Below, one piece after another: positions 9,500 to 62,673 of a stretch of DNA of 64,000 nt. The stretch lies in contig OZ024740.1 of the NCBI GenBank assembly GCA_964016885.1, forward strand, positions 37,138,001 to 37,202,000, in the 5' to 3' direction. A model generated the notes under the pieces. It was not told the origin of the DNA, did no database searches, and worked only from the letters and a program-made list of their open reading frames with translations. The DNA comes from Eledone cirrhosa. Lineage: Eukaryota. Each line of letters starts with the position of its first letter. Position 1 is the first letter of the stretch. Both the position numbers and the translations under genes were made by a program.

Positions 9500-9765
9500 T
9501 AATAATAATAATAATAATGCTTTCTTTATTAACCACAAGTGTTTACATAAAGTAGACATTAAGGACAGTACAGGACAATACAGGACGGTACAAATGGACA
9601 TTTCTGCGTGTAAAACAAAACAGAGGATGTAATAAAAATTAACAATGAAAAATTCCCCAATAGGGGGGAGACTTCCGAGGGACATTTGTGGAGAAAGCCT
9701 ATTAAAAAGCCACAGTGACCCTGACAACCAGGGCAAGTGCCCTCTCCCAGTTTTCCACCTTTAAT

Positions 9766-12700
9766 TTACAGACACATACTCAGAGTAGGCCCATTCACTC
9801 GGGCCATACTTGCTTCTCTCACTCATCTTTCAAGAGAGCACTTCCCTCTCTACCCTGATTTTCCTTTTAAAAATGAAATTTGAAAAGGTTAATCAGGGCA
9901 TCACCGATAAGGTAATTGCTCGTCTTCAGCCCTTTCTAACGTGTCCACCATACTATCTCTTTCGCCATGGCCACCAGACAGATAAAAACTGCCCGCCCTT
10001 CCCGGCTAAAGGAGGAGGGCGGGGCAATCCTCACGATGGACTCAGATGATAGCCGGATCCGTCCTAAACGCGACAGCAGGTGTTCGACATAAACCCACAA
10101 GTCAGCAATTTTCGGACACTGGACGAGTGCGTGCAGGACGGTTTCGTCGCCCTGCGCGCATCTCGGACATGCCCGGCTGACGGCACCTCCATGCCTGTAG
10201 AGTTTATCCCGAACTGGCAAGGCTCCTCGGTAGCACTGCCAGGCCAGAGATTTCTGGAAGTTGTCCATAGGCCCCGGCCCGAAAGTTCTTCCGAAGAGAT
10301 TGGCTAGTTGATTTTCGTCGACGCCTAGAGTTTCCCCAAGTACGTCGTCGCTCTTACCCTCCACTAATCCTCTATAGAACGCCGAGGTGGAGTTTCCACC
10401 GATCACATTGCCCGATTGGTCGAGGGCTGTGAGCGCCTGAAGACATTCCAGTCTCCAGGCGCTCCCTCTCGGTCTTCGCTTGACCCAGGACTGCAGCTCC
10501 GTCAAGGAAACGAGCTGGGGAAACACGCGTCTAGCAAACGGCGACCACACCTGATCACCGTCGAGGAAGAGGTGGAGATGTCGTAGCCTGAGCGCGTGCC
10601 TGCGCATCATCAGCCACGGCATGCCCAGCCCTCCACGTAGCGGGTGTTGACAACAGATGGACCGCCTGACCATCGGAGCGCGTCCCTTCCACAAAAAGCG
10701 AAAGAGCAAACGCTCCAGCACAGTCAGGCGAGGCTTAGGACAAGGTACGACGGTCAGGCGGTAGCAGATGACGGACGCGATGTACGCGTTAGCCACCTCC
10801 GCTCGACCTTTCAGGGATAGCTTCCTCTCGGCCCATTTCTGGGTGAGAGAAGCCACCCTGCTCGTCACCTCGTCCCAGTTTTTGTCCGTCTGGAGGTCCG
10901 GACCGAACCAGACCCCTAGCAATTTAACCGGTGCGTCCGTCCAGCGTCCGACGACGCTGTTGGACGGCATGGACCTGCCTCTCCAGTTGCCGAGCTGCAG
11001 GCCCACTGACTTTTCCTGGTTGATCATTGCTCATTTCACCGCTTCGTATTCTCTTAGTGTAGTGCCGATCGCCTCGATGTGTTTGGCGTTCGACACCACT
11101 ACGGTGACATCGTCCGCATATGCTGATACGGATCTTCCGCATCCTAGTTCGCGCGGGACCCCCCTCAACGTCTCCAGTTTGTGCAGTAATGGCTCGAGAG
11201 TCAATACGTACAAGAGGGACGAGAGGGGACATCCTTGGCGGACCGAGCGCATGATGTTGAACGGTTCCGACAGGTGACCGTTCACTCTCACCACAGAGCA
11301 GATGTCGCTGTGCATGGCAGCGATCCAGCCTCTGAAGACGGGCCCAGAGCCAGCAGCCCTCAGGACTGCCGCTAGGTAACGATGGTCGACCCTATCGAAA
11401 GCTTTCGACTGATCTAAATTGATCAAGGACCCACCCGTGCCAGGTTCCCTAGCTACCCTCTCTACGATGTATCGCATGAGGTGGAGGTTGTCGTGGATGG
11501 ATCTGTCGGGAATGGCGCATGTCTGCGCCTCTCCCACCAGACCACCAACGACAAGCGCCAACCTCTTTGCTAGCACCTTGGCCAAAATCTTAAACTCTGT
11601 GTTTAGCAGAGTTATGGGCCGGAAATTTTCTATGTTATCCCCCTTGTTCGGATCCTTTCTCAGCAGTGCCACCGCTCCTCGGCTCACAGAACTGGGAATT
11701 CTCCCGTTCTGTTGCCAGTTGCAGTAGACGTCCGCCAAGAGGCCTCCGAACAAGTCTGGCATCTGTACGTAAAGTTCATAGGGCAGACCATCCAAACCAG
11801 GCGATTTACCCCTTGTGCAGCCAGTCATTGCCTCCCTTACTTCAGCGGCTGTTATCGGCTTTTCGCAACACTTCGCCTCAGTGGCCGAGAGCCGCGGCAG
11901 TCCGTCGAGGTAGACACTAAAGTCCATCCCTCTACCCGGCCCACCGCTGCCCCCGAACAGCTGAGCGAAGTGTTGCTGAAAAGCTTCACACATTTGCCCG
12001 GGATCGAGTAGCATGCGCCCGTCGTGGTCCACCAAAGACCGGATCGTGGCTTTGTTGCCACGACGCGCCTCCGCCACTCGGGCCCATTGAACGGCTTTCG
12101 TCCCCTCGTGTCTGAGAGCACGCACCCTAGCTCTGACAACGCAGCCTTCGTGCTTTGCATTGAAGAATTGGTCAAGGGCCAATTTCGCCGCAAGCACGTC
12201 GGTCGCAATGCCTTTGCTAAGCGCCTCATCTAATTTTCTAACTAGTTCTCCCTCTGCTCTATTTTTCTCTATTGCTAAAGCCTTACTAAATCTAATCGAT
12301 TCTATTCTAATCGCTCTTTTCAGAGCAAACCACCACTTGTTGTTGACGATGGCCCCCGTCAACGCCCGCTTAACTAGTTCGCTAATCCGGTCTCTGTAGG
12401 CCTTGCGCGCTGGTAAGGACGCGTTTAGCTTCCAGTAGCCGGGTCCTCGTCTATGAAGCCTATCTAAGTCAAGCACACAGATCACGAATTTGTGGTCCGT
12501 GTAGCTGACTATCTTGAATTGTGGACAGCCTATGCTAGACCTATCTATTTCCCTACAAAATACTCTATCTAGATATGATCTGGATGACCCTATGCGGTTT
12601 GTCCAAGTCCACATTGGCACATTCGGGAAATCCAATCGGTACCTGTCAGACAGTTCAAAACGCCTGAGCAGGTTGGTGAGGCTCTTGCACCCTCCACCCC

Positions 12701-13172
12701 TATCCGCTAATCCCACACAGTCCCAGCGTGCATCTAAGATCCCGTTCCAGTCGCCCACTAACACTAAAGAGCGGGACGTTCCAAGAAAGGTCTCCAGACG
12801 CCGGAAGAAATCAGGCCGCCCTGCTCCTGTCGGGGCATAGACGGCCACTAGCCTGAAAGCTTGCCCGTCTCCGCTGGTCACGTCCAGCACCACCAGCTTA
12901 CCCTCTGGGTCCAGGAAGATGGCCCGTATGGCGAGATCCAAACCTCTCCGAAAAAGCACAGCAACTCCTCCACCCGATCCAGGACGGCTGGGAGATGCGT
13001 ACACATCGTAGCCGCCGAAGATCGGTGCGAAGGCCCGTGCTTCGGAGATTCTGGTCTCGCTGATGGCCACTACATCTATGTTTAGTGACCTGAGGTCGTT
13101 GAGCAGGTGACCCTGCTTCCATGACGACCCCAAGCCACGCGCATTTATGCTGCCTATTCTGAGTGAGGTCAT
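9766..13172 (-). pseudogene. T1 ORF2, APE-RT-CCHC, two nonsense codons and a small C-terminal deletion
   Basis: SINARG, AISET, GDWN, YLDR, TDH (APE); SPGLDG, RPITLLN, QGCPLS, YADD (RT); CPRCAQGDETVLHALVQC; in-frame stops at 11031 and 9936 relative to T5. Confidence 0.93.
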
Positions 13173-13207
13173 GTTTAAAATAGGGTGGAAAAGATGGGAA
13201 AGACCAC

Positions 13208-15278
13208 TTACCGTACTTTTGGTAGAGGAGGGATGGTTTTTACATCCCTTTTCACTTGATCGTCTGGTGAAGGGACCGTTGAATCGTCCCTTCGGCTGGT
13301 CGTCGGCTCTTCTAAGAGAATGTCTGAGTATACTCTTCGATTGATAGTTCCTCCTAGGTCTCTGAAATCACCAACTGCGTTGGGGAATTTCGTTTTAATA
13401 TTTGTGTATTGTTTCTGTGCTATTTTTAGCAGTCTTATGTTAGTTGGCGTTTTGATTGGTGCTGGTATTATGTAGTCCTGTTGTGAAATGTCTGTGTGTT
13501 CAATTATGTAAGTCATTAGTTTCTTGTTGTGTGTATTTATTGCCGTGCATTTGTTTTTCTGGGGGTGTGGTGTGGTTCTGCTATTTTCTTGTCGTTGTTG
13601 CTGGGTGTGTGTGTTTTGTTGTTGTGTTTGCGATGTTGGTGCTTGTGGTGGTGGTGTTGAAGGTGTTGTTGGTGGTGGGCTTGTCGCCGGTGGTGATGGT
13701 GGTGCTAGTGTGGGTGGTGATGGTGTTGGTGGTGTTGCTGCTGTGGGTCTCTTTGCAGTAGACTTTACCCTTTCCTCATTTCTTTCCTCCCTTTTCAAAG
13801 GCGACGATGCGCTGCTTCTGCGTTTGTGCCTTCTTACGACCTTTTGCCATCTCTCTCCCACCTCACACTCCATGTCTGATTCTGTGAGGTCGGGGAGGGG
13901 TACCAGCTCCACTCTTTCACTTGTTGTTGTTGGTGATGTTTGCACTGGAGTCTCTGTTGCAGCTGCATTTGGTATTGCTGTTGTTGTTGTTAGTATTTCC
14001 ACTGCTGCTGCTGTTTTTGATTTCCGTGGAGTGGGTATGGGTGCCACGGGCCTATCGTTCCTGGTTGCCGCTTGTCCTGTTGCTGGTAGCCGTGGCGCCG
14101 GATTCGGAAGGAGGGGGGTTTTCTCCTTTCTCAGGGTCTTCTCGTTGCAGAAGGCCCTGAGGTGAGTCTTCGATCCACAGCGAAAGCATTTCGGGCGTTT
14201 GCCCTCAACACTTATGGGCAGTTGAGTGCCGTTATCGAAGTCTATCCCATCCGGGATAGCTTCGATGCACTCCTGGTTGGTTTGGATTAGCATCTCAATG
14301 GAGGAGCCGACCCAATCTTCTCTTACTTTTTTCTGTACTTGCAGTACAGTTGTTTTGTCCTCGATTCCGACGAGGACAGACGCGGCCAGCCAAGAAGGGG
14401 TCATTCCGGGGGGGGGCGTGGGTCAGTTTGACCCTCACAATTTTTTGCCCGCAGTAGGAGGGCACCAACACCATTTCCTCGCTCCTTAGGGTCACTACTG
14501 ATTGGGCCTTTGCCTCCTGGGGTGTGGCAAAAAGTACGTCTACGGTGGCATATTTTTTGCCTCGGGTGATGTGCGTTTTCCGCTGCCACACAGACCCCAA
14601 GGCTTTTTGTATTTGGGCCTCTGTGGCTCTTTCCACCCTACGGGATTTTGTACTTGCTGTACGGTACGTGACCGTACAGTGCTCTTGGGTTTCGAAAAGT
14701 GTTTCCGCTGCCTTGCAGATTGCTCGGTGTCCGTTCTTTGTCACCATCTTCTTCGCTTCCTCTAATTCCTCATTTGTTATGAGGATTGTTTCCAAGTTTT
14801 TCGCAATACCTGCAAATGAGATTGGTTTTTCTCTGCTGTTGTTGTTGTCGTCAGAGCTGCTGGTACTTTTGTTGTTGCTGCAGGTACTACGACTACTGCC
14901 TCCGCCGCTGTTGCTGTGGTTGTTGTTGGTGTTGCTGCTGCTAATGCTGTTGTTGTTTATGCTGCTGGTGATGCTGTTGCGGCTGCTACTGTTGTTTTCA
15001 TTGTCACTGTTGCTGTTGTTATTACGGCTGCTACTGCTATTATTCCTGACGTCAGACGAATGAACTGGGTTTTCGTATTTCCCGCACACCTGTTTCGTCG
15101 CTGTCGTCGTCGTCGTGGAGAAACCTTGCACGCTTTGCACGAGACTTTTCTTTTCTTTCGTCACTTGCGAAAGAGAAGGGAGGGAGAGAGACAATCTTCT
15201 CTCTGCTGTAGTGATGATTGAGGAAGAAGAAGACGGAATGAGTGGGAGTGACGTATGAAATTTCTTTTTCGTAGCCAT
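13208..15278 (-). pseudogene. T1 ORF1 (gag-like), one frameshift in a G run near 14410
   Basis: Asn/Ser-rich N-terminus, conserved KTHITRGKKYATVDVLF block, zinc knuckle CFRCGSKTHLRAFC, Pro/Thr-rich tail; ORFs 14295-15278 + 13208-14404. Confidence 0.88.
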
Positions 15279-15541
15279 GTTGTTTTTTGTTTAAAATGAA
15301 ATTTTGGGTACAAAACCCCAGTAACTGGTTATTTAACCCCGAAGGGCCAAATAACGGACAGAAAGACCCCTCTCACGAGAAGGAAGGTGTCTTTATCAAC
15401 AATTTGGTTCAAGTTTTAAACAATTTACAATTGTTTTAACGGTTAAAAATTACTATACCTTACAGAGCCGAGCCTCCGTCAACCATGGCATTCAATAATA
15501 ATAATAATAATAATAATAATGATGGTAATAAAACTAATAAT

Positions 15542-19423: not shown

Positions 19424-19450
19424 AACAATAATAATAATAATAATAATAAT

Positions 19451-43409: not shown

Positions 43410-43465
<56 letters not shown>

Positions 43466-43466
<1 letters not shown>

Positions 43467-46400
43467 TTTTCTTTATTAACCACAAGGGTTCACATAAAGT
43501 AGACATTAAGGACAGTACAGGACAATACAGGACGGTACAAATGGGCATTTCTGCGTGTAAAAAAACAGAGGTTGAAATAAAATAACAAAGAAAAATTCCC
43601 CAATAGGGGGGAGACTTCCAAGGGACATTTGTGGAGAAAGCCCATTAAAAGACCACAGTGGCCCTGACCACCAGGGCAAGTGCCCTCTCCCAGTTTTCCA
43701 CCTTTAATTTACAGACACATACTCAGAGAAGGCCCATTCATTCGGGCCATACTTGCTTCTCTCACCCATCTTTCAACAAAATGCTGGGAAGAGAGCACTT
43801 CCCTCTCTACCCTGATTTTCCTTTTCAAATGAAATTTGAAAAAGTTAATCAGGGCATCACCGAAGAGGTAAGTGCTCGTCTTCAGCCCTTTCAAACGTGT
43901 CCACCATACTATCTCTTTCGCCATGGCCACCAGACAGATAAAAACTGCCTGCCCTTCCCGGCTAAAGGAAGGGGGCGGGGCAATCCTCACGATGGATTCA
44001 GCTGATAGCTGGATCCGTCCTACACGTGACAGCAGGTGTTCGACATAAACCCACAAGTCAGCCATGCTCGGACACTGGATGAGTGCGTGCAGGACGGTTT
44101 CGTCGCCCTGCGCGCATCTCGGACATGCCCGGCTGACGGCACCTCCATGCCTGTAGAGTTTATCCCGAACTGGCAAAGCTCCTCGGTAGCACTGCCAGGC
44201 CAGGGATTTCTGGAAGTTGTCCATAGGCCCCGGCCCGAAAGTCCTTCCGAAGAGATTGGCTAGTTGATTTTCGTCGACGCCTAGAGTTTCTCCAAGTACG
44301 TCGTCGCTCTTCCCCTCCACTAATCCCCTATAGAACGCCAAGGTGAAGTTTCCACCGATCACATTGCCCGATTGGTCGAGGGCTGTGAGCGCCTGAAAAC
44401 ATTCCAGTCTCCAAGCGCTCCCTTTCGGTCTTCGCTTGACCCAGGACTGCAGCTCCGTCAAGGAGACGAGCTGGGGAAAGACGCGTCTAGCAAACGGCGA
44501 CCACACCTGATCACCGTCGAGGAAGACGTGAAGATGTCGTAGCCTGAGCGCGTGTCTGCACATCATCAGCCACGGCATGCCCAGCCCTCCACGTAGCGGG
44601 TGTTGACAGCATATGGACCCCCTGACCATCGGAGCGCGTCCCTTCCCGAAAGAGCAAACGCTCCAGCGCAGTCAGGCGGGGCTTAGGACAAAGTACGACG
44701 GTCAGGCGGTAGTAGATGACGGACGCGATGTACGCGTTAGCCACATCCGCTCGACCTTTCAGGGATAGCTTCCTCTCGGCCTATTTCTGGGTGAGAGAAG
44801 CCACCCTGCTCGTCTCCTCGTCCCAGTTTTTGTCCGTCTGGATGTCCGGCCCGAACCAGACCCCTAGCAATTTAACCGGTCCGTCCGTCCAGCGCCCGAC
44901 GACGCTGTTGGACGGCATGGACCTGCCTCTCCAGGTGCCGAGCTGCAGGCCCACTGACTTTTCCTCGTTGATCATTGCTCCTGTCACCGCTTCGTATTCT
45001 CTTAGTGTAGTGCCGATCGCCTCAATGTGTTTGGCGTTCGACACCACTACGGTGACATCGTCCGCATATGCTGACACGGATCTTCCGCATCCTAGTTCGC
45101 ACGGGACCCCCCTCAACGTCTCCAGTTTGTGCAGTAATGGCTCGAGAGTCAATACGTACAAGAGGGACGAGAGGGGACATCCTTGGCGGACCGAGCGCAT
45201 GATGTTGAACGGTTCCGAAAGGTGACCGTTCACTCTCACCACAGAGCAGATGACGCTGTGCATGGCAGCGATCAAGCCTCTGAAGACGGGCCCAAAGCCA
45301 GCCGCTCTCAGGACTGCCGCTAGGTAACGATGGTCGACCCTATCGAAAGCTTTCGACTGATCTAAATTGAACAAGGACCCATCCGTGCCAGGTTCCCTAG
45401 CTACCCTCTCTACGATGTATCGCATGAGGTGGATGTTGTCGTGGATGGATCTGTCGGGAATGGCGCACGTCTGCGCCTCTTCCACCAGACCACCAATGAC
45501 AAGCGCCAACCTCTTTGCTAGCACCTTGCCCAAAATCTTGAACTCTTTGTTTAGCAGATTTATGGGCCTGAAATTATCTATGTTATTTCCCTTGTTCGGA
45601 TCCTTTCTCAGCAGCGGCACAGTTCCTCAGCTCACAGAGCTGGGAATTCTCCCGTTCTGTTGCCAGTTGCAGTAGACGTCCGCCAAGAGGCCTCCGAACA
45701 AGTCTGGCACCTGTACGTAAAGTTCATAGGGCAGACCATCAAAACCAGGCGATTTACCCCTTGTGCAGCCAGTTATTGCCTTCCGTACTTCAGCGGCTGT
45801 TATCGGCTTTTCGCAACACTCCGCCTTAGTGGCCGAGAGCCGCTGCAGTCCGTTGAGGTAGACACTAAAGTCCATACCTCGACCCGGCCCACCGCTGCCC
45901 CCGAACAGCTGTGCAAAGTGTCGCTGAAAAGCTTCACATATTTGCCCGGGATCGAGTAGCATGCGCCCGTCGTGGTCCACCAATGACCGGATCGTTGCTT
46001 TGTTGACACGACGCGCCTCCGCGACTCGGGCCCATTGAACGCAGCCCTGAAAACGCAGCCTTCGTGCTTTACATTGAAGAATTGGTCAAGGGCTAATTTC
46101 GCCGCAAGTACGTCGGTCGCAATGCCTTTGCTAAGCGCCTCGTCTAATTTTCTATCTAATTCTCCCTCTGCTCTATTTTTCTCTATTGCTAAAGCCTTAC
46201 TAAACCCAATGGACTCTATTCTAATTGCTCTTTTCAGAGCAAACCACCACTTGTTGTTGGCGATGGCCCCCGTCAACGCCCTCTTAACTAGTTTGCTAAA
46301 CCTGTCTCTGTAGGCCTTGCGCGCTGGTAAGGACGCGTTTAGCTTCCAGTAGCCGGGTCCTCGTCTATGAAGCCTATCTAAGTCAAGCACACAGATCACG

Positions 46401-49265
46401 AATTTGTGGTCTGTGTAGCTGACTATCTTGAATTGTGGACAGCCTATGCTAAACCCATCTATTTCCCTACAAAATACTCTATCTAGATATGATCTGGATG
46501 ACCCTATGAGATTTGTCCAAGTCCACATTGGCACATTCGGGAAATCCAATCGGTACCTGTCAGACAGTTCAAAACGCCTGAGCCGGTTGGTGAGGCTTTT
46601 GCACCCTCCTCCCCTATCCGCTGATCCCACACAGTCCCAGCGTGCATCTAAGATCCCGTTCCAGTCGCCCACTAACACTAAAGAGCGGGACGTTCCAAGA
46701 AAGGTCTCCAGACGCCGGAAGAAATCAGGCCGCACTGCTCCTGTCGGGGCATAGACGGCCACTAACTTGAAAGCTTGCTCGACTCCGCTGGTCACGTCTA
46801 GCAGCACCAACTTACCTTCTGGGTCCAGGAAGGTGGCCCGTGTGGCAAGATCCAAACCTCTCCGAAAAAGCACAGCAACTTCACCCCCCGATCCCGGACG
46901 GCTGGGAGATGCGTACACATCGTAGCCGCCGAAGATCGGTGCGAAGGCCTGTGCTTCGGAGATTCTGGTCTCGCTGATGGCCACTACATCTATGTTTAGT
47001 GACCTGAGGTCGTTGAGCAGGTGGCCCTGCTTCCATGACAACCCCAAGCCGCGCGCATTTATGCTGCCTATTCTGAGTGAGGTCATGTTGAAAAGGGGTG
47101 GAAAAGATGGGAAAGACCACTTACCTTACTTCCCGCAGAGGAAGGATGGTTTCTCCATCCCTTTTCACTTGATCGTCTGGTGAAGGGACCGTTGAATCGT
47201 CCCTTCGTCTGGTCGTCGGCTCTTCTGTGAGTATATCCGAATATACTCTCCGGTTGAGTGTCCCTCCTAGGTCTCTGAAATCACCAACTGCGTTGGGGAA
47301 TTTCGTTTTTATGTTCGTTGGTGTTTTGATTGGTGCTGGTATTATGTAGTCGTGCTGTGAAATGTCTGTGTGTTCAATTATGTAAGTCATTAGTTTCTTG
47401 TTGTGTGTATTTATTGCTGTACATTTGTTTTTGTGGGGGTGGGGTGTGGTTCTGCTATTTTCTTGTCGTTGTTGCTGGGTGTGTGTGTTTTGTTGTCGCC
47501 GGTGGTGATGGTGGTGCTAGTGTGGGTGGTGATGGTGTTGGTGGTGTTACTGCTGTAAGTCTCTTTGCAGTAGCCTTTACCCTTTTTTCGTTTCTTTCCT
47601 CCCTTTTCGAAGGCGACGATGCGCTGCTTCTGCGTTTGTCCTTCTTGCGACCTTTTGCCAGCCCTCTCCCACCTCACACTCCATGTCCGATTCTGTGAGG
47701 TCGGGGAGGGGTACCAGCTCCACTCTTTCACTTGTTGTTGTTGGTGATGTTTGCAGTGGAGTCTCTGTTGCAGCTGCAGTTGGTATTGCTGTTATTGTTG
47801 TTAATACTTCCACTGCTGCTGCTGTTCTTGATTTCCGTGGCGTGAGTATGTGTGCCACGGACCTATCATTCTTGGTTGCCGCCTGTCCTGTTGCTGGTGG
47901 CAGTGGAGCCGGTTTCGGAAGGAGGGGGGTTTTCTCCTTTCTCAGGGTCTTCTCATAGCAGAAGGCCCTGAGTTGAGTCTTCGATCCACAGCGTTTGCCC
48001 TCAACACATATGGACAGTTGAGTGCCGTTATCGAAGTCTATCACATCCGGGATAGCTTCGATGCACTCCTGGTTGGTTTGGATTAGCATCTCAATGGAGG
48101 TGCCGACCCAATCTTCTCTTACTTTTTTTTGTACTTGCAGTACAGTTGTTTTGTCCTCGATTCCGACGAGGACAGACGCAGCCAGCCAAGAAGGGGCCAT
48201 CCCGGAGGGGACGTGGGTCAGTTTGACCCTCACAATTTTTTGCCCGCAGTAGGAGGGCACCAACACCATTTCCTCGCTCCTTAGGGTCACTACGGATTGG
48301 GCCTTTGCCTCCTGGGGTGTGGCAAAAAGTACGTCTACGGTGGCATATTTTTTGCCTCGGGTGATGTGCGTTTTCCGCTGCCACACAGACCCCAAGGCTT
48401 TTTGTATTTGAGCCTCTGTGGCTCTTTCCACCCTACGGGATTTTGTACTTACTTGCAGATTGCTCGGTGTCCAATCTTTGTCACCATCTTCTTCGCTTCC
48501 TCTAATTCCTCATTTGTTATGAGGATTGTTTCCAAGTTTTTCGCAATACCTGCAAATGAGATTGGTTTTTCTCTGCTGTTGTTGTTGTCGTCAGAGCTGC
48601 TGTTACTTTTGTTGTTGCTGCAGATACTACGACTACTGCCTCCGCCGCTGTTGCTGTGGTTGTTGTTGGTGTTGCTGCTGCTAATGCTGTTGTTGTTTAT
48701 GCTGCTGGTGATGCTGTTGAGGCTGCTACTGCTGTTTTCATTGTCACTGTTGCTGTTGTTATTACGGCTGCTACTGCTATTATTCCTGACGTCAGACGAA
48801 TGAACTGGGTTTTTGTATTTCCCGCACACTTGTTTCGTCGCTGTCGTCGTCGTCGTGGAGAAACCTTGCACGCTTTGCACGAGACTTTTCTTTTCTTTCG
48901 TCGCTTGCGAAAGAGAAGGGAGGGAGAGAGACACATTTAAAGAAGGGAGGGAGAGAGACAATCTTCTCTCTGCTGTAGTGATGATTGAGGAAGAAGAAGA
49001 CGGAATGAGTGGGAGTGACCTATGAAATTTCTTTTTCGTAGCCATGTTGTTTTGTTTTTTTGTTTAAATTAAATATTGGGTACAAAACCCCAATAAGCAG
49101 TTATTTAACCCCGAAGGGCCAAATAACGGGCAGAAAGACCCCTCTCACGAGGAGGAGGGTGTTTTTGTCTACAAGTTCGTTAAAGTTTTCAACAATTTAC
49201 AATTGTTATAGTGTTCAAAATTTACAATACCTTACAGAGCCGAGCCTCCGTCAGCCATAGCATTC
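43466..49265 (-). mobile_element. Full-length Tx1 copy T2 (ORF1 type I 49045-47121, ORF2 47086-43709, both disrupted)
   Basis: Homologous to T1 end to end; AAT repeats on both sides. Confidence 0.93.
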
Positions 49266-49281
49266 AATAATAATAATAATA

Positions 49282-50593: not shown

Positions 50594-50915
50594 AATAATA
50601 ATAATAATAATAATAATAATGATTTCTTTATTGGCCACAAGGGCTGACATCAAGAAAAACATTACAGACGGTACAGGACGGTACGATGTGGGTTTTGTGC
50701 GTGTAAATATTTTTATTATTTATATAAGAAAAAAAAGGACATAGAAACATATATATATATATATATAAACAATAAAAATGAAAATTGAAACAATGAAAAA
50801 TTCCCCAATAGGGGGGAAACCTCCGAGGGTTACCCGTGGCGAAAACCACACAAAAGACCACGGCCACCCTGACCACCAGGGCAAGCGCCCTCTCTCAATT
50901 TTTCCATCTCTCAAA

Positions 50916-53900
50916 CTACAGACGTATATTCAGAGTGGTCCCGTTCACTCGGACCATTCTCGCTACATTCACCCACCTTTCAACAAACTTGCTAGAAGGC
51001 AGCACTTGCCTCTCCAATCTGATTTTCCTCTTCAAGTAAAACTTGAAAAAGTTAATTAGGGATTCGCCGAAGAGGAAAGTGTCTATCTTTAACCCTTTTA
51101 ACCTTGTCCACCACACAATCTCTTTCGCCATGGCCTCCAGGCAGATGAAAACCGCCTGCCCTTCCTCCTCGAAGGAAGACAGCGAGACCATCTGCACCAA
51201 TGGACTCAGTCGACAACCGGATCAGTCCTACACGCGACAGCAACTGTTCGACATAGCTCCACAAGTCAGCAATGCTCGGGCACTGAACGAGTGCGTGCAC
51301 GACGGTTTCGTCGCTCTGCGCGCATCTCGGACAGGCTCGGCTGACGGCACTTCCGTGCCTGTAGAGCTTATCTCGAACCGGCAGCGTCCCCGGAAGCACT
51401 GCCAGGCCAGGGATTTTTGGAAGTTATCCATAGGCCCCGGGCTGAAAGTTCTCCGGAAGAGAGCAAACAGCTGATCTTCTTCGACGCCCAGGATCTCTCC
51501 GAGAACGTCGTCGCTCTTCCCCTCCACTAGTCCTCTATAGAACGCCGAGGTGGATGTTCCACCGATACTGGTGCCCAGCTGGCAGAGGGCAGTGAGCGCC
51601 TGGAGACATTCCAGTTTCCAAGCGTTATACCTCGGTCTTTTTCTGGCCCAGGACTGCAGCTCCGTCAAGGAGACGAGCTGTGGGAAAACGTGACTGGCGA
51701 ACGGCGACCACACCTGTTCACCATCAAGGAAGCACCAGAGATGTCGCAGCCTCAGCGCATGTTTGCGCATCATCAGCCATGGCATGTCCGGTCCTCCACG
51801 CAACGGGTGTTGACAGCAGATGGATCGTCTGACCATGGGAGCGCGTCCCTTCCACAAAAAGCGGAAGAGGAGGCGCTCCATTTTGCTGAGAGTTGGGCTG
51901 GAGCAAAGGACGACGGTGAGGCGGTAGCAGATGATGGATGCGATGTACGCATTCGCCACCTCCGCCCGGCCTTTCAGGGACAGCTTCCTCTCAGCCCATT
52001 TCTGGGTGAGGGAGCCCACCCTGCTCATCACCTCGTTCCAGTTTTTCTCCATCTGGAGGTCCGGTCCGAACCAGACCCCGAGCAATTTAACCAGTCCGTC
52101 CGTCCAACGCCCCACAACGCTGTCGGACGGCATGGACTTGCCTCTCCACGTGCCTAACTGCAAGCCCACCGACTTTTCCGGGTTTATCTTTGCTGCTGTC
52201 ACCGCTTCGTATTCCTTGAGAGCGGTGCCGAGCATCTGGACGTGTCTGGTGCTCGACACCACCACGGTGACGTCGTCAGCGTAAGCCGACTCGGATTTCC
52301 CGCATCTTAGTTCGCGTGGGACGCCCCTCATCGCCCCCAGTTTGTGCAGTAACGGCTCGAGAGCCAATACGTACAAGAGGGACGAGAGGGGACAACCCTG
52401 GCGGACTGAGCGCATGATGCTGAACGGCTGCGACAGGTGACCGTTCACCCTCACAACTGAGCAGATGTCGCTGTACATTGCTGCGATCCAAGCCCTGAAA
52501 ACGGGCCTGAAACCGGCTACCTCGAGGACCGCCGCCAGGTACCGATGGTCGACCCTATCGAATGCTTTGGATTGATCCAAGTTGATCAGGGCCCCACCCG
52601 TGCCGGGTTCCTTAACGACCCTCTCTATGATGTATCGCATGAGGTGGAGGTTGTCGTGTATGGATCTGTCCGGAATGGCGCATGTCTGCGTCTCTCCCAC
52701 CAGACCACCAACGACAAGCGCCAACCTCGTTGCTAACACCTTGGCCAAAATCTTGAACTCTGCGTTTAGCAGAGTTATGGGCCGGAAATTATCGATGAAA
52801 TCCCCCTTGTTCGGGTCTTTTCTCAGCAGCGCCACTGTTCCCCGGCACACAAACCGGGAATGCTCCCGTTCTGCTGCCAGTTGCAGTAGACGTCTGCCAA
52901 GAGGTCACCGAACAAGTCTGGCATAAATGCATAAAGCTCGTAGGGCAGACCATCTAAACCTGGTGATTTACCTCTTGTGCAGTTAGCCATCGCTTCCCGT
53001 ATTTCACCGACTGTTATTGGCCTTTTCGCAACACTGTGCTGCGGTCGTCGGGAGCCGAAGCAGTCCGTCGAGGTATGCACTGAAGTCCATGTCCCGATCC
53101 GGGCTGCCGCCGCTCCCGAACAGTTCAGCAAAGTGCTGCTGAAAAGCTTCACACATCCGCTCGGGTTCGAGCATCACGCACCCGTTTTGGTCAGACAAAG
53201 ACCGAATTGTGGCTTTATTGCCACGTCGCGCCTCTGCCACCCGGACCCATTGGACGGCTGTGTCCCCTCGTGTTTCAGAGCACGCGCTCTAGCTCTGACA
53301 ATGCAGCCTTCGTGTTTTGCGTTGAAGAATTGGTCGAGTGCCAATCTCGCCGCAAGCACGTCGGTTGCGATGCCTGTCCTAAACGCCTCTTCTAGCTTTC
53401 TGACTAGCTCTCCCTCTACTCTATTTTCCTCTATCACTACTCCTTTGCTAAACCTAATCGACTCTACTTTAATTGCCCTTTTCAGGGCGAACCACCACCT
53501 TTTGTTGACGCACGCTCCCGTCAACGCCCGCTTAACAAATACGTTACTCCGGTCTCTGTAGGCTTTGCTCGCCGGGAAAGACGCGTTCAGCTTCCAGTAA
53601 CCAGGCCCTTGTCTATGAAGTCTGTCTATGTCGATCTCACAGATCACAAATTTGTGGTCTGTGTAGTCGACTATTTTAAATTGTGGACACTTATACTAGC
53701 CTTATTTACTTCTCTGCAGAATACCCTATCGAGATACGATCTGGATGACCCGATGCGGTTTGTCCATGTCCACATTGGCACATTCGGGTGATCCAGTCGA
53801 TACCTGTTAGACAGTTCAAAACGCCTGAGCAGGTTGGTGAGGCTCTTGCACCCTCCTCCCCTATCCACTAGCCCCACACGATCCCAGCGTGCAGCCAAGA

Positions 53901-54307
53901 TACCGTTCCAGTCGCCCACTAACACTAAAGAGCGGGACGTTCCAAGAAAGGTCTCTAGACGTCTGAAGAAATCTGGCCGTCCTGCCCCTGTTGGGGCGTA
54001 GACGTCTACTAGCCTGAAAGTATTTGCCTTCGCTGCCGGTCACGTCCAGCACCACCGACTTACCTTCTGGGTCTAGGAAGATGGCCCGTATCGCGAGATC
54101 CAAGCCTCTCCGAAAAAGGACAGCAACATCTCCCCCCGATCCTGGACGGCTGGGAGGTGCGTATACATCGTAGCCGCCGAAGATCGGTGCGAAGGCTTGT
54201 GCTTCGGAGGTTCTGTTTAATGACCTGAGGTCGTTGAGCAGGTGACCCTGCTTCCAAGATGACCCCAGGCCACGTGCATTTATACTGCCTATTCTGAGTA
54301 CGGCCAT
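50916..54307 (-). pseudogene. T4 ORF2, APE-RT with multiple frameshifts and deletions
   Basis: MAVLRIGSINARG start; fragments 53861, 53671, 53174, 53004, 52823, 51228, 51052, 50916. Confidence 0.9.
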
Positions 54308-54339
54308 GTTGGACGAGAAGCGGGGCAAATGAGAAAGGG

Positions 54340-56436
54340 TCACTTACCTTGTTCGTGTGGTGAAGGGACAGTAGAACCGTCCCTTTCGCTGGTCATGGGT
54401 GATTCCAAGAGGATGTCAGTGTATATCCTCTTGGTAACCAACCCTCTGAAGTCTCCAACTGCGTTGGGGGATTTTTGTTTTAAAGGTTTGTACTGTTCTA
54501 TTGAGATTTCGATGATGCTTATGTTTGTCGGGAGAGTTCTTGGTCTTGGTGGGGTGTAGTAGTTTTTTTCTGTGATGTCTGTGTGCTGCTTTATATATTG
54601 TATGGGTTCTTTTTTTGCCATGTTTATGGCTGTGTACTTTTTGGGGGGAGGGGGGATTTTGTTGCCGTTTTCTTCTTGTTGCTGTTTGGTGTGTGTGTCT
54701 TGTTGTGTTTGCGTTGTTGGTGTTTTTGGTGATGCTGGTGGTGGTGGTGTGGTTGTTGTTGTCAGTGGTGCTTGTGGTGGTGATGGTGGTGGTGTTGCTG
54801 CAAGTTTCCTTGCTGCCTTTACCCCTCTTTGTATGCCTTCGCTTTTGGAGGGTGAATCTAAGGGTTTTTTTCTTTTTTCTTTTTTGTGGCTGACCGTTTG
54901 CCACTTCACTCCCGCCTCAAACTCCATGTCGGATTCTGTGGCGTCTTGGAGGGGTATGTGCTCCACGGCTGTTGGTGGTGGTAGTGGAGCCCTCTTCGGC
55001 AATTTTGTTCCTGGTGTAGCTACTTCGAATGTAGCTATTGGTGTTGCCGCCACTGATGATGCTGCTTTAATTGTCCGTGGTCTTGGTACGGGTGCTACAG
55101 ACGTTGCCCTCCTACTCACCGTGGGAGGGGCTTCTTCGTTTGTTGCCTGCCCTGCTCTTGGTAGCAGCGGACCAGGTATTGGAAGGAGAGGGGCCTTCTT
55201 CGCTGTCTTCTGCGGGCAAAAGGCGCTGAGGTGACCCTTCGACCCACAGAGATAACATTTTGGCCGTCTTCCTTCTACACTTATAGGGAGTTGGAGTCCT
55301 TCCTCGATGTCTATGATATCGGGGATAGCCTCGATACATTCCTGGTCAGTTTGTATAAGCATTTGCATGCCTATACCTGACCAGTTCTCTCTCCCTATTT
55401 TTACTACTTGCAGCATGGTCGTCCTGTTCTCGATTTCAGCAAGGACAGACGCGGCCAGCCAAGGTATGGGCACGTCGGGTGGGATCTGGGTTACTTTGAG
55501 CCTCACAATTTTCTGCCCGCAGTAGGAGGGCACCAAGACTAACTCCTCACTCTTTAGGGTTTCCAAAGAGTGAGACTTTGCTTCCTGGGGGGTGGCGAAA
55601 AGTACGTCTACTGTGGCGTACTTTCTGCCTCGGGTGATGTGGGTTTTGCGTGCCCAGACGCACCCCAAGGCCTTTTGGATTTGAGCGTCCGTGGCTCTCT
55701 CCACTCGATATGAGATTTTGCTTACGGTGCTGTAAGTCACCGTTCGTAGCTGCTGGTCCTTGAAAAAATCGGGTGGAGGTTTCAGGGAGACTCTATTTGC
55801 GCGTCTTGTCACCATAGCCCTTGCGACTGCCATCTCCTCCTCTGTGACTAACACTGTCTCGATATTTCGGGCGACACCTGGAAAAGAAGTGGTCCCTTTT
55901 TCAGCAGCACAACTATTGCTGCCGTTATTGGTCTTACTGATGGTGCTGAGGTCGCTATTACAGATATCGGTGTCATTGTCGTTCTTTTCGTTGGAACAGT
56001 TGTTGGTGTTGTTGTTGTTTTCGTTGATAGTGTTGCTGTTGTTACTGTTATTGTGGTTGTTGTTATTATTGTTGTTTTTGTTGATACTGTTCCTACTATT
56101 ATTGTTGTTGTGGCTGTTGTTATTGTCATTGTTATTGTCGTTCTCGACCTTACCGCTGTTATTTTTGTTATTGTCGTCCTCGACTTTACCGCTGTTATTT
56201 TTGTTGTTGCTGGTGTTATTGATGGTGTTGTTGTTGGTGTTGTTGGTGGTGTTATTGTTGGTGTTGTTTGTGTTAGAAATATTTGTTAATTTTAAATCTG
56301 TAACAATCTTCTTTTCCTTTGTAATATTTTCGTTTATATTTATCTCCGCTGGAACGCTGTCTTGTTGACATGCTGATAAAGTCTCCCTCTCTCTGTGTTG
56401 TCTGACAGCGCTCTCTCTGTTTCTTGTGTTATCCAT
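54340..56436 (-). CDS. T4 ORF1, intact 698 aa from MDNTRN
   Basis: Poly-Asn N-terminus, KTHITRGRKYATVDVLF block, knuckle CYLCGSKGHLSAFC, Pro/Thr tail; first ATG of the 54340-56484 frame is at 56436. Confidence 0.88.
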   Translation of the reverse strand: MDNTRNRESAVRQHRERETLSACQQDSVPAEININENITKEKKIVTDLKLTNISNTNNTNNNTTNNTNNNTINNTSNNKNNSGKVEDDNNKNNSGKVENDNNNDNNNSHNNNNSRNSINKNNNNNNNHNNSNNSNTINENNNNTNNCSNEKNDNDTDICNSDLSTISKTNNGSNSCAAEKGTTSFPGVARNIETVLVTEEEMAVARAMVTRRANRVSLKPPPDFFKDQQLRTVTYSTVSKISYRVERATDAQIQKALGCVWARKTHITRGRKYATVDVLFATPQEAKSHSLETLKSEELVLVPSYCGQKIVRLKVTQIPPDVPIPWLAASVLAEIENRTTMLQVVKIGRENWSGIGMQMLIQTDQECIEAIPDIIDIEEGLQLPISVEGRRPKCYLCGSKGHLSAFCPQKTAKKAPLLPIPGPLLPRAGQATNEEAPPTVSRRATSVAPVPRPRTIKAASSVAATPIATFEVATPGTKLPKRAPLPPPTAVEHIPLQDATESDMEFEAGVKWQTVSHKKEKRKKPLDSPSKSEGIQRGVKAARKLAATPPPSPPQAPLTTTTTPPPPASPKTPTTQTQQDTHTKQQQEENGNKIPPPPKKYTAINMAKKEPIQYIKQHTDITEKNYYTPPRPRTLPTNISIIEISIEQYKPLKQKSPNAVGDFRGLVTKRIYTDILLESPMTSERDGSTVPSPHEQGK

Positions 56437-56652
56437 GTTGAAATTTTTCAAGAAGATATTTTTACACAAATACGAATACGGCACCCCGTATAGGGGTGCC
56501 GTATTATTTACGAGTGAACCCCTGTATTAGGTGGGTCACTTCTTTTAAACTTTTATCAAATTTAAAACTTGAATAAAAGGTTTAGAACGGTTGAAAACGA
56601 GGTAAAACGTTGAAAAAAAACTAGAGGCGATAAGAAGCGTGGCTTCACCAAC

Positions 56653-56713
<61 letters not shown>

Positions 56714-56956
56714 TTTTCTTTATTAACCACAAGGGTTTACATAAAGTAGACATTAAGGACAGTACAGGACAATACAGGACGGTACAAATGGGCATTTCTG
56801 CGCGTAAAAAAACAGAGGTTGAAATAAAATAACAAAGGAAAATTCCCCAATAGGGGGGGAGACTTCCGAGGGACATTTGTGGTGAAAGCCCATTAAAAGA
56901 CCACAGTGGCCCTGACCACCAGGGCAAGTGCCCTCTCCCAGTTTTCCACCTTTAAT

Positions 56957-59900
56957 TTACAGACACATACTCAGAGAAGGCCCATTCATTCGGGCCATAC
57001 TTGCTTCTCTCACCCATCTTTCAACAAAATGCTGGGAAGAGAGCATTTCCCTCTCTACCCTGATTTTCCTTTTCAAATGAAATTTGAAAAAGGTAATCAG
57101 GGCATCACCGAAGAGGTAAGTGCTCGTCTTCAGCCCTTTCAAACGTGTCCACCATACTATCTCTTTCGCCATGGCCACCAGACAGATAAAAACTGCCTGC
57201 CCTTCCCTGCTAAAGGAAGGGGGCGGGGCAATCCTCACGATGGACTCAGCTGATAGCCGGATCCGTCCTACACGTGACAGCAGGTGTTCGACATAAACCC
57301 ACAAGTCAGCAATGCTCGGACACTGGACGAGTGCGTGCAGGACGGTTTCGTCGCCCTGCGCGCATCTCGGACATGCCCGGCTGACGGCACCTCCATGCCT
57401 GTAGAGTTTATCCCGAACTGGCAAGGCTCCTCGGTAGCACTGCCAGGCCAGAGATTTCTGGAAGTTGTCCATAGGCCCCGGCCCGAAAGTTCTTCCGAAG
57501 AGATTGGCTAGTTGATTTTCGTCGACGCCTAGAGTTTCTCCAAGTACGTCGTCGCTCTTCCCCTCCACTAATCCCCTATAGAACGCCAAGGTGGAGTTTC
57601 CACCGATCACATTGCCCGATTGGTCGAGGGCTGTGAGCGCCTGAAGACATTCCAGTCTCCAAGCGCTCCCTCTCGGTCTTCGCTTGACCCAGGACTGCAG
57701 CTCCGTCAAGGAGACGAGCTGGGGAAAAACGTGTCTAACAAACGGCGACCACACCTGATCACCGTCGAGGAAGAGGTGGAGATGTCGTAGCCTGAGCGCG
57801 TGCCTGCGCATCATCTGCCATGGCATGCCCAGCCCTCCACGTAGCGGGTGTTGACAGCAGATCGACCGCCTGACCATCGGAGCGCGTCCCTTCCACAAGA
57901 AGCGAAAGAGCAAACGCTCCAGCGCAGTCAGGCGGGGCTTAGGACAAGGTACGACGGTCAGGCGGTAGTAGATGACGGATGTGATGTACGCATTCGCCAC
58001 CTCCGCTCGACCTTTCAGGGAGAGCTTCCTCTCGGCCAATTTCTGGGTGAGAGAAGCCACCCTGCTCGTCACCTCGTCCCAGTTTTTGTCCGTCTGGAGG
58101 TCTGGACCGAACCAGACCCCTAGCAATTTAACCGGTCCGTCCGTCCAGCGCCCGACGACGCTGTTGGACGGCATGGACCTGCCTCTCCAGGTGCCGAGCT
58201 GCAGGCCCACTGACTTTTCCTGGTTGATCATTGCTCCTGTCACCGCTTCGTATTCTCTTAGTGTAGTGCCGATCGCCTCGATGTGTTTGGCGTTCGACAC
58301 CACTACGGTGACATCGTCGGCATATGCTGACACGGATCTTCCGCATCCTAGTTCGCGCGGGACCCCCCTCAACGTCTCCAGTTTGTGCAGTAATGCCTCG
58401 AGAGTCAATACGTACAATAGGGACGAGAGGGGACATCCTTGGCGGACCGAGCGCATGATGTTGAACGGTTCCGAAAGGTGACCGTTCACTCTCACTACAG
58501 AGCAGATGTCGCTGTGCATGGCAGCGATCCAGCCTCTGAAGACGGGCCCAAAGCCAGCCGCCCTCAGGACTGCCGCTAGGTAACGATGGTCGACCCTATC
58601 GAAGGCTTTCGACTGATCTAAATTGATCAAAGACCCACCCGTGCCAGGTTCCTTAGCTACCCTCTCTACGATGTATCGCATGAGGTGGAGGTTGTCGTGG
58701 ATGGATCTGTCGGGAATGGCGCATGTCTGTGCCTCTCCCACCAGACCACCAACGACAAGCGCCAACCTCTTTGCTAGCACCTTGGCCAAAATCTTGAACT
58801 CTGTGTTTAGCAGAGTTATGGGCCTAAAATTATCTATGTTATCCCCCTTGTTCGGATCCTTTCTCAGCAGCGCCACCGCTCCTCGGCTCACAGAGCTGGG
58901 AATTCTCCCGTTCTGTTGCCAGTTGCAGTAGACGTCCGCCAAGAGGGCTCCGAACAAGTTTGGCATTTGTACGTAAAGTTCATAGGGCAGACCATCAAAA
59001 CCAGGCGATTTACCCCTTGTGCAACTAGTCATTGCATCCCGTACTTCAGCGGTTGTTATCGGCTTTTCGCAACACTCCGCCTCTGTGGCCGAAAGCCGCG
59101 GCAGTCCGTCGAGGTAGACACTAAAGTCCATCCCTCGATCCGGCCCGCCACTGCCCCCGAACAGTTGAGCGAAGTGTCGCTGAAAAGCTTCACACATTTG
59201 CCCGGGATCGAGTAGCATGCGCCCGTCGTGGTCCACCAAAGACCAGATCGTGGCTTTGTTGCCACGACGCGCCTCCGCCACTCGGGCCCGTTGAACGGCT
59301 TTCGTCCCCTCGTGTCTGAGAGCACGCACCCTAGCTCTGACAACGCAGCCTTCGTGCTTTGCATTGAAGAATTGGTCAAGGGCCAATTTCGCCGCAAGTA
59401 CGTCGGTCGCGATGCCTTTACTAAGCGCCTCATCTAATTTTCTAACTAATTCTCCCTCTGCTCTATTTTTCTCTATTGCTAAAGTCTTACTAAACCTAAT
59501 GGACTCTATTCTAATTGCTCTTTTCAGAGCAAACCACCACTTGTTGTTGACGATGGCCCCCGTCAACGCCCACTTAACTAGTTCGCTAATACGGTCTCTG
59601 TAAGCCTTGCGCGCTGGTAAGGACGCGTTCAGCTTCCAGTAGCCGGGTACTCGTCTATGAAGCCTATCTAAGTCAAGCACACAGATCACGAATTTGTGGT
59701 CCGTGTAGCTGACTATCTTGAATTGTGGACAGCCTATGCTAGACCTATCTATTTCCCTACAAAATACTCTATCTAGATATGATCTGGATGACCCTATGCG
59801 ATTTGTCCAAGTCCACATTGGTACATTCGGGAAATCCATTCGGTACCTGTCAGACAGTTCAAAACGTCTGAGCAGGTTGGTGAGACTCTTGCACCCTCCT

Positions 59901-60376
59901 TCCCTATCCACTAATCCCACACAATCCCAGCGTGCATCTAAGATCCCGTTCCAGTCGCCCACTAACACTAAAGAGCGGGACGTTCCAAGAAAGGTCTCCA
60001 GACGCTGGAAGAAATCAGGCCGCCCTGCTCCTGTCGGGGCATAGACGGCCACTAACCTGAAAGCTTGCCCGTCTCCGCTGGTCACGTCCAGCACCACCAA
60101 CTTATCTTCTGGGTCCAGGAAGATGGCCCGTATGGCAAGATCCAAACCTCTCCGAAAAAGCACAGCAACTCCTCCCCCCGATCCCGGACGGCTGGGAGAT
60201 GCGTACACATCGTAGCCGCCGAAGATCGGTGCGAAAGCCTGTGCTTCGGAGATTCTGGTCTCGCTGATGGCCACTACATCTATGTTTAGTGACCTGAGGT
60301 CGTTGAGCAGGTGGCCCTGCTTCCATGACGACCCCAAGCCACGCGCATTTATGCTGCCTATTCTGAGTGAGGTCAT
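56957..60376 (-). CDS. T5 ORF2, intact 1139-aa APE endonuclease / RT / CCHC protein
   Basis: All APE and RT motifs listed for T1, uninterrupted. Confidence 0.95.
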   Translation of the reverse strand: MTSLRIGSINARGLGSSWKQGHLLNDLRSLNIDVVAISETRISEAQAFAPIFGGYDVYASPSRPGSGGGVAVLFRRGLDLAIRAIFLDPEDKLVVLDVTSGDGQAFRLVAVYAPTGAGRPDFFQRLETFLGTSRSLVLVGDWNGILDARWDCVGLVDREGGCKSLTNLLRRFELSDRYRMDFPNVPMWTWTNRIGSSRSYLDRVFCREIDRSSIGCPQFKIVSYTDHKFVICVLDLDRLHRRVPGYWKLNASLPARKAYRDRISELVKWALTGAIVNNKWWFALKRAIRIESIRFSKTLAIEKNRAEGELVRKLDEALSKGIATDVLAAKLALDQFFNAKHEGCVVRARVRALRHEGTKAVQRARVAEARRGNKATIWSLVDHDGRMLLDPGQMCEAFQRHFAQLFGGSGGPDRGMDFSVYLDGLPRLSATEAECCEKPITTAEVRDAMTSCTRGKSPGFDGLPYELYVQMPNLFGALLADVYCNWQQNGRIPSSVSRGAVALLRKDPNKGDNIDNFRPITLLNTEFKILAKVLAKRLALVVGGLVGEAQTCAIPDRSIHDNLHLMRYIVERVAKEPGTGGSLINLDQSKAFDRVDHRYLAAVLRAAGFGPVFRGWIAAMHSDICSVVRVNGHLSEPFNIMRSVRQGCPLSSLLYVLTLEALLHKLETLRGVPRELGCGRSVSAYADDVTVVVSNAKHIEAIGTTLREYEAVTGAMINQEKSVGLQLGTWRGRSMPSNSVVGRWTDGPVKLLGVWFGPDLQTDKNWDEVTSRVASLTQKLAERKLSLKGRAEVANAYITSVIYYRLTVVPCPKPRLTALERLLFRFLWKGRAPMVRRSICCQHPLRGGLGMPWQMMRRHALRLRHLHLFLDGDQVWSPFVRHVFPQLVSLTELQSWVKRRPRGSAWRLECLQALTALDQSGNVIGGNSTLAFYRGLVEGKSDDVLGETLGVDENQLANLFGRTFGPGPMDNFQKSLAWQCYRGALPVRDKLYRHGGAVSRACPRCAQGDETVLHALVQCPSIADLWVYVEHLLSRVGRIRLSAESIVRIAPPPSFSREGQAVFICLVAMAKEIVWWTRLKGLKTSTYLFGDALITFFKFHLKRKIRVEREMLSSQHFVERWVREASMARMNGPSLSMCL

Positions 60377-60410
60377 GTTGAAAAGGAGTGGAAAAGATGG
60401 GAAAGACCAC

Positions 60411-62409: not shown

Positions 62410-62616
62410 TTTTTTCAATGAAATTTTTTGATAATAATAAAAGTTTAAATTTTGGGCACAAGGCCCCAATCTTTTTGGGTGTCCTTTTCGGAAAACAATG
62501 TATGTGCGCTTATAAACAGTTAACAATAAAATTATCCATAAATGACAATTTTTAACAAACGGAAATAACAAACCTTTGCGGAGCTCACGATGATACGATT
62601 TTCTACGTAGGTCGCC

Positions 62617-62673
<57 letters not shown>

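Follow-up and report, generated by a model that had tools for sequence, protein, structure and literature searches.

A candidate 5' splice site on the ORF1 stop codon of L1/Tx1-type LINEs in Eledone cirrhosa

The LINEs and their ORF1/ORF2 junctions

There are four near-full LINEs (T1, T2, T4 and T5) in the window, the whole stretch of 64,000 nt that was analysed. The window is repeat-rich animal DNA and all four elements lie on its minus strand (Table 1). A 3' part truncated by the window edge (T6) lies upstream of T5 and a 5' fragment (T3) lies downstream of T4; the head-to-tail order is T6, T5, T4, T3, with (ATT)n runs between the elements. There is also a short T4-type 3' fragment at 19421-19885. 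(ATT)n is present on the 5' side of T1 to T5 and on the 3' side of T1, T2, T4, T5 and T6, and these flanks show a preference for a repeat target. The 3' runs may in part be tails.

ORF2 has an N-terminal AP endonuclease, a reverse transcriptase (RT) and a C-terminal zinc-binding region, which match Pfam Exo_endo_phos, RVT_1 and zf-RVT above cut-off. The closest solved structure to T5 ORF2 is human L1 ORF2p (E 1e-49); R2 matches with E 1e-19. The zf-CCHC match of T4 ORF1 is weak (E 0.0015, below the Pfam cut-off), and in the Atlas the look-alikes of ORF1, at 0.89-0.92, belong to mollusc CCHC and ZCCHC3-RBD clusters (recognition 2237, under 2300). The named relatives of the elements are from Octopus sinensis, O. 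bimaculoides and Argonauta hians. There were no Rfam matches across the window. The elements are L1/Tx1-type LINEs that insert into (ATT)n, often in one another's tails, and Tx1 is their likely clade as judged from these comparisons.

Table 1. Features of the LINEs and of their ORF1/ORF2 junctions in the window
Feature	Position	Strand	Remarks
Element T1	9520..15494	-	(ATT)n at both flanks
Element T2	43465..49266	-	(ATT)n at both flanks
Elements T5 (62617-56712) and T4 (56653-50620)	50620..62617	-	Head to tail, (ATT)n between
T4 ORF1	54340..56436	-	698 aa without interruption; RRM-like core, putative CCHC knuckle, then low-complexity linker and C-terminal domain
T5 ORF2	56957..60376	-	1139 aa without interruption; AP endonuclease, RT and zinc-binding region
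T1 junction donor (-3..+6)	13206..13214	-	Overlaps ORF1 TAA (13210-13208)
T2 junction donor	47119..47127	-	Overlaps ORF1 TAA; ORF2 ATG at 47086
T4 junction donor	54340..54350	-	Reads G-K-TGA; ORF2 ATG at 54307
T5 junction donor	60409..60417	-	Overlaps ORF1 TAA; ORF2 ATG at 60376
T1 inter-ORF pyrimidine spacer	13173..13203	-	24/28 pyrimidines; ORF2 ATG at 13172
T1 unit 1, T4-like 41-nt hairpin unit	13255..13295	-	CAG (13298-13296) before; ends at T4 donor boundary
T1 unit 2, T5-like 43-nt hairpin unit	13212..13254	-	Ends at live donor; join between 13255/13254
T2 units 1 and 2	47125..47208	-	Join as in T1, between 47168/47167
T4 41-nt hairpin unit	54348..54388	-	Between CAG (54391-54389) and donor
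T5 42-nt unit and upstream CAG (60459-60457)	60415..60459	-	CAG matches T1/T2 chimera entry point
T1 3'UTR acceptor-like site	9604..9633	-	CAG ends 9604; equivalents end 43551 (T2), 56798 (T5); CAC in T4-type

A preliminary description of this DNA had reported the motif G|GTAAGT on the minus strand at the four ORF1/ORF2 junctions. The motif is there, with its GT starting at 13211, 47124, 54347 and 60414, and the frames over it read V-R-TAA in T1, T2 and T5 and G-K-TGA in T4, as had been stated. A pyrimidine tract before the ORF2 ATG was likewise confirmed (24/28, 25/27, 25/29 and 25/27 pyrimidines), the ATG lying 38-40 nt past the donor. The ATG is preceded by CAAC or AAAC, which is a strong invertebrate start context. 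Upstream of the junction, each ORF1 end carries one or two short units in which a 9-bp hairpin is predicted, ending about 15 nt upstream of the donor, and a CAG precedes the hairpin unit in every copy.

The donor motif and its retention

U1 duplex energies were used to rank the junction motif over about 300 GT sites per element. The junction donor forms the top in-register U1 duplex among 304 GT sites in T2, 327 in T4 and 293 in T5, and it ranks second among 313 in T1. By its complementarity to the 5' end of U1, the motif therefore matches a U2-type 5' splice site. The simulated chance of finding GGTAAGT no more than 7 nt from a random stop is 0.08-0.17%, and that of finding a relaxed donor near a random stop is 0.4-0.9%. 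GGTAAGT occurs 12 times in the window (8 minus, 4 plus); there is a perfect coding-derived donor in ORF2 at D-P-E-G-K in T2 and T4, and an antisense GGTAAGT near the ORF2 end in T2, T5 and T6, evidence that such motifs can turn up in these elements of their own accord.

Three further properties that the motif might have had were considered and set aside. Structural sequestration of the donor is not a general feature, because T4 alone has an unusual opening energy, with 3/30 other sites as high, compared with 20-22/30 in T1, T2 and T5. A recursive (AG|GT) splice site was rejected because the upstream pyrimidine tract is missing. Evasion of HUSH via the donor is disfavoured: in reported experiments, stuffers that carried splice sites and were spliced gave no protection (PMC8770142).

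The four junctions had been counted as separate cases, which cannot be upheld. At four-fold sites T1 and T2 are identical to T5 ORF2 at 507/546 and 484/518 positions (0.93) and T4 at 318/453 (0.70), and the junction travels with the ORF2 lineage. The window thus holds just two independent junction lineages, T1/T2/T5 and T4, and T4 is the sole outgroup. Under neutral divergence at the rate of the four-fold sites, retention of the motif between T4 and T5 has a p of 0.084 for 7 bases and 0.041 for 9, so that this retention on its own (p 0.03-0.08) is weak evidence. T4 and T5 are identical at 10/10 positions from -3 to +7 and at 20/38 and 17/30 positions in the flanks (37/68), which gives a Fisher p of 0.005 for a window that was picked post hoc and 0.038 for the 7-mer. 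The difference in frame between T4 and T5 is due to a single 1-nt indel five codons upstream of the stop. There are longer T4-T5 identical runs (13 and 12 nt) in the nearby ORF1 coding region, the 10-nt run at the donor being the third longest within the last 370 nt. With two lineages, weak neutral p values and longer runs nearby, the evidence for conservation from the window alone is modest.

The endings of ORF1 homologs give a second view of the motif. With a HMMER profile of the ORF1 core, 384 proteins were matched, of which 150 were listed, and one more came from a separate search; a word-index search with T4 ORF1 residues 185-698, unlike the full profile, gave no matches. Nine homologs reach the C-terminal end (P0010, P0015, P0022, P0031, P0160, P0032, P0037, P0044 and P0151); P0034, which stops within the C-terminal domain, was placed among the 142 others. 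Among the matches listed, an [E/Q]-G-K ending is found in 2/9 end-reaching homologs and 0/142 others (Fisher p 0.003), and the looser pattern of G-K or G-K-x in 2/9 and 2/142 (p 0.018). The two are P0015 and, from Argonauta hians, P0022, in which [E/Q]-G-K is followed by the stop or by Ser (a T-starting codon). In the ORF1 core their identity to T4, and that between the two, is 30-32%. Such an ending is what a donor read in the frame of T4 would translate to. The other seven of the nine, again among the matches listed, have no G-K ending; they include a close Octopus pair whose tails appear by eye to be frameshifted relative to one another, and also a sister clade whose ends are shorter. A donor would leave this footprint in one frame out of three, so the seven misses do not refute it.

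It is possible that the G-K endings instead reflect a protein-level motif. The loss of the protein motif from T1, T2 and T5, which kept the nucleotides, counts against this. The earlier statement that protein coding does not explain the motif gains support from the 10/10 identity between T4 and T5 and from the G-K endings of two distant homologs at the protein level. Related junction DNA was sought in 135 genomic contig stretches, among which there were no relatives; a second contig scan gave two loci with the RT so near the start of the contig (285 and 658 nt) that a junction would not fit. On this evidence we think it rather probable that the donor is under selection at the nucleotide level.

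The chimeric ORF1 end of T1 and T2

Comparison of the hairpin units identifies the ORF1 end of T1 and T2 as a chimera of T4-type and T5-type sequence, which is newly recognised here. Unit 1 of T1 is 81% identical to the T4 unit and 48% identical to unit 2 of T1. Unit 2 of T1 and T2 is 76-81% identical to the T5 ORF1 end (76% for T1), and the two units are about 50% alike. Further upstream T1 ORF1 is a third type, with 63% identity to T4 and 59% to T5. The T1 and T2 insertions have the same join and different flanks, which indicates that the chimera has propagated.

The best of all T4/T5 joins scored runs from the T4 donor exon boundary to the position after the CAG 42 nt before the T5 donor (77/81), where T4 and T5 serve as proxies for the true parents. 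Three tied joins vary only inside the shared AG, and joins 3-4 nt away are just 2 points lower. In a breakpoint test that was post hoc, the last 100 nt offered 673 offset pairs sharing 2 nt or more of microhomology; 11 of them are at the donor boundary and 2 of these also use a YAG. The pyrimidine tract before the entry CAG is poor. As far as the proxies allow it to be placed, the join sits on the GT-AG boundaries of the parents, as splicing one element of an array into the next would leave it. A template switch at AG microhomology could also produce it; in the reading preferred below, one splicing event probably made the T1/T2 family. The non-independence of the copies, the upstream hairpin and the position of this join on a donor boundary are three points absent from the preliminary description.

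Insertion is head to tail, so a read-through RNA could splice the end of one ORF1 into the 42-nt unit that precedes the donor of the next element. In its full form, this reading holds that the donor has been kept since before the Argonauta-Octopus split and that read-through splicing between tandem elements swapped ORF1 and founded T1/T2. As a whole we consider it rather unlikely. If it were true, the promoter and ORF1 of one family would have been joined to the ORF2 of another to give a complete element, in effect a productive SpIRE and a mechanism for 5'-end replacement in LINE evolution. Were the join a splice scar, it would show how LINE lineages can trade promoter and ORF1 and retain ORF2.

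Possible roles of the donor and comparison with known systems

All four genomic copies retain the segment downstream of the donor, and copies precisely lacking the intron, which had been proposed as a check, are absent from the window. The probability of finding 0/4 spliced copies is 0.06 if 50% of the RNA is spliced and 0.66 if 10% is, so the four retained copies exclude only high spliced fractions. Of the three models in the preliminary description, candidate U1 docking without splicing fits best. Another, a short intron that would remove the stop and the ATG and fuse ORF1 to ORF2, has the geometry claimed for it: there are 52 or 53 nt from the donor to the first CAG, and the join is in frame in T1, T2 and T5. 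Pyrimidine tracts between donor and branch point do occur in small fly introns. In T4, however, a join at the first CAG hits an immediate stop, as had been noted, and the AG at 59 nt that would be needed gives a product without L-R-I of the first endonuclease strand (aligned with L1 residues 9-13). Moreover, two AGs that lie 5 nt apart will by chance cover two of the three frames. ORF2 has kept its own ATG in a strong context; ORF2 sequence was found in 0/150 of the listed ORF1 matches and 0/9 ORF2 matches were longer than 1302 aa. Cis preference and the appearance of spliced L1 RNAs as SpIREs have been described for human L1 (PMC5860796), and cis preference should mobilise a spliced RNA that makes ORF2. 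The presence of the segment in 4/4 copies therefore counts against the fusion intron, which we consider very improbable.

Genomic retention is compatible with the remaining model, a dedicated 3.6-kb intron to a CAG in the 3'UTR, because the spliced RNA would lack ORF2; the result would be an ORF1-only mRNA like the copia gag RNA. In the T5-type 3'UTR there is an acceptor-like CAG with a T-rich tract in 4/4 cases, and the product would be ORF1 plus 19 residues with a stop within the last exon. The T4-type 3'UTR has CAC in 2/2 cases, however, so the acceptor is not conserved over both lineages, and the T4 alternative, near the poly(A) signal, would give a product with no stop before the tail. 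The window has no internally deleted copy, and no ORF1-plus-3'UTR form was recognisable among the end-reaching homologs. The full-length RNA, moreover, already gives ORF1 its own stop. This intron is unlikely. A hydrophobic reading frame in the 3'UTR, considered as a membrane isoform, was rejected as a composition effect.

It is also conceivable, and a good deal less doubtful than either intron, that the motif has no role in splicing. It would then have arisen once where G-K-stop or x-R-TAA met the spacer. Common ancestry, a protein motif P-x-x-[EQ]-G-K at the C-terminus and a place in an RNA structure that serves ORF2 termination-reinitiation would have preserved it, and the T1/T2 join would be an ordinary template switch at AG microhomology. 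There are two lineages only, with neutral retention at p 0.04-0.08, and donors arise from coding elsewhere in the elements. The predicted hairpin lies directly upstream, with 83% of cells paired over six units and two doubly changed pairs, and its purine arm has an alternative predicted pairing with the pyrimidine spacer. G(-1) and G(+1) of the donor are predicted to pair with the spacer in 4/4 copies, and the folding z-scores of the junction are -1.4 to -2.4. The structure suits termination-reinitiation of the kind described, with cis structures, in SART1 and L1 (PMC5972666), and spacer pairing in reinitiation would be a role for the spacer that requires no intron. Set against this, the covariation of the hairpin is not significant (39/500 shuffles are equally high), the pairing partners of the motif vary between copies, the opening energy stands out in T4 alone, and T1, T2 and T5 have lost the protein motif yet retain the nucleotide motif. 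Finally, the U1 rank, the homolog endings and the position of the join would all three have to be chance.

We tentatively prefer a reading that itself falls short of an even chance: the ORF1 stop would carry a U1 site that is under selection, stays unspliced in most transcripts and is now and then spliced to acceptors that are not fixed. The end of ORF1 would be laid out like a composite terminal exon, with a strong 5' splice site on its stop codon. The RNA that retrotransposes has the site unspliced, as the genomic copies show; ORF1 terminates inside the site and ORF2 would start at its own ATG 38-40 nt on, probably by reinitiation with help from the hairpin upstream and from the pyrimidine spacer. 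The site may be maintained because U1 snRNP binds it. By analogy with the plant Ty1/copia element EVD, U1 would prevent premature 3' processing of a long intronless RNA and so set the share of full-length RNA. A minority of transcripts might be spliced to any downstream acceptor, either the 3'UTR CAG in T5-type elements or one in the next tandem element. Besides the limits of the conservation and join evidence given above, two observations tell against this preferred reading. The AATAAA signals that U1 could suppress are nearly missing from ORF2 (T4 has one; T1, T2 and T5 have none), and coding alone yields equally perfect donors in these elements. Variant hexamers are present at +61 to +63 in 4/4 copies, within a protein-constrained motif.

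Splicing is generally regarded as a loss for LINEs, and translation is usually given as the source of their ORF1:ORF2 ratio. Were the donor maintained at the ORF1 stop in distantly related cephalopod families, these elements would be a case of a LINE using U1 or splicing as copia elements do. Additionally, with sense-strand donors and poly(A) signals, such abundant elements could be a source of exons for octopus genes. Searches of the open-access literature gave no account of a donor placed on the ORF1 stop in Tx1 or cephalopod LINEs.

L1-Tx1 families are reported to have been recently active in Octopus vulgaris (PMC13282606), and the Tx1 clade includes LINEs with microsatellite targets, Kibi and Koshi (PMC4494074). 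The elements described here resemble these in their two ORFs, an ORF2 with AP endonuclease and RT, an ORF1 with a putative CCHC knuckle, insertion into simple repeats and tandem copies. They differ in that the target is (ATT)n.

In EVD, U1 at a conserved donor is reported both to splice and to block premature termination, and the acceptor is the less informative site (PMC5580714). EVD shGAG in Arabidopsis and the Drosophila copia gag RNA have a conserved donor that ends the structural gene, as the present elements appear to have; as in EVD, the unspliced full-length RNA is the transposition template and the donor is more informative than the acceptor. In contrast, EVD and copia are LTR elements whose polyprotein gains its stop by splicing, whereas ORF1 here has its own TAA or TGA. 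Also unlike EVD and copia, there is no acceptor common to both lineages, as the T4-type lacks the 3'UTR CAG, and the donor here is a candidate.

In human L1 a donor is reported to have persisted over 46 Myr on grounds that have nothing to do with splicing, a precedent that tells against the preferred reading; SpIREs, which use a 5'UTR donor, are described as dead ends (PMC5860796). Spliced L1 chimeras are reported to join at donors, and trans-splicing has been proposed for them (bioRxiv 2025.02.02.635956). The T1/T2 join is like these in being a retrotransposed join on splice boundaries, and the donor, it seems, is like that of L1 in being long kept and rarely used. Unlike the joins of SpIREs, the T1/T2 join is at the end of ORF1, links two families and has rebuilt a complete element with a live donor; it is found in two independent insertions, in contrast with a dead end. 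TART introns, for their part, are described as antisense (PMC1636488).

The short spacer between stop and ATG and the hairpin with alternative pairings near the stop recall the L1 inter-ORF spacer, SART1 and TURBS as described (PMC5972666). Unlike in TURBS, motif 1 (UGGGA) is absent as such (the GGGA core is present in T1, T2 and T4 and not in T5), and the stop and start do not overlap. The ending of T4 ORF1 also has an analogue in a host gene. The secreted immunoglobulin heavy chain ends in P-G-K-stop, which is the read-through of a dual-use splice donor. By this analogy G-K-stop lies over a donor in both cases; the heavy chain differs in belonging to a host gene with a fixed downstream exon.

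Donors and divergence in the LINE copies

The L1/Tx1-type LINEs contain perfect donor motifs in addition to the one at the ORF1/ORF2 junction, one of them within ORF2 and another antisense to its end (see table). A tectonic-3-like gene model of O. sinensis (P0003 among the protein-database matches) contains a related endonuclease piece that stops at D-P-E, as if the ORF2 donor at D-P-E-G-K had been used.

In the 37 nt before the junction donor, T1, T2 and T5 differ at 19-24% of positions, far above the level at four-fold sites (7%). There are also in-frame deletions: the T4 endonuclease lacks 27 nt (about 54205-54220), and the C-terminal domain of T2 ORF1 lacks 39 nt (about 47290-47330).

Positions of donors and reverse transcriptase (RT) frames in the window
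Feature	Copy	Position	Strand
Second perfect donor, within ORF2 at D-P-E-G-K	T2	46816	minus
	T4	54064	minus
Perfect donor antisense to ORF2 end	T2	43867	plus
	T5	57115	plus
	T6 (3' part)	63079	plus
37 nt preceding junction donor	T1	13215-13251	
	T2	47128-47164	
	T5	60418-60454	
Uninterrupted RT ORF, 1130 aa, zf-RVT, (AAT)n tail		390-3815	plus
RT-like open frames		20553-22448	plus
		23618-24823	plus

Insertion sites and neighbouring elements

Within 43406-64000 and 9497-15541, (ATT)n/(AAT)n runs are the LINE insertion sites. The targets include the tails of other LINEs and of plus-strand RTE-like elements, and head-to-tail arrays are the result. T3 (49266-50593), a T1/T2-type 5' fragment, switches directly before T2 to an inverted 228-nt piece of an RTE-like element (49282-49509).

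Degraded copies of the element with the uninterrupted RT ORF, which is probably RTE/R4-like, occupy 15954-19450 and 39588-43465; another family is present at 30689-39534. A Pfam scan of two pieces of the RT-like open frames, which may be Penelope-like, gave no meaningful match. There is an inverted self-match of 641 nt (91% identity) at 26708-27341.

Related sequences outside the window

L1/Tx1-like RT was found on short contigs of bacterial MAG records (L001:285-1037 and L002:658-1350); these two loci are probably eukaryotic contamination. In four protein models (P0018, P0033, P0066 and P0096) host-like domains are fused to pieces of the ORF1 family, which suggests exonisation or annotation artefacts.
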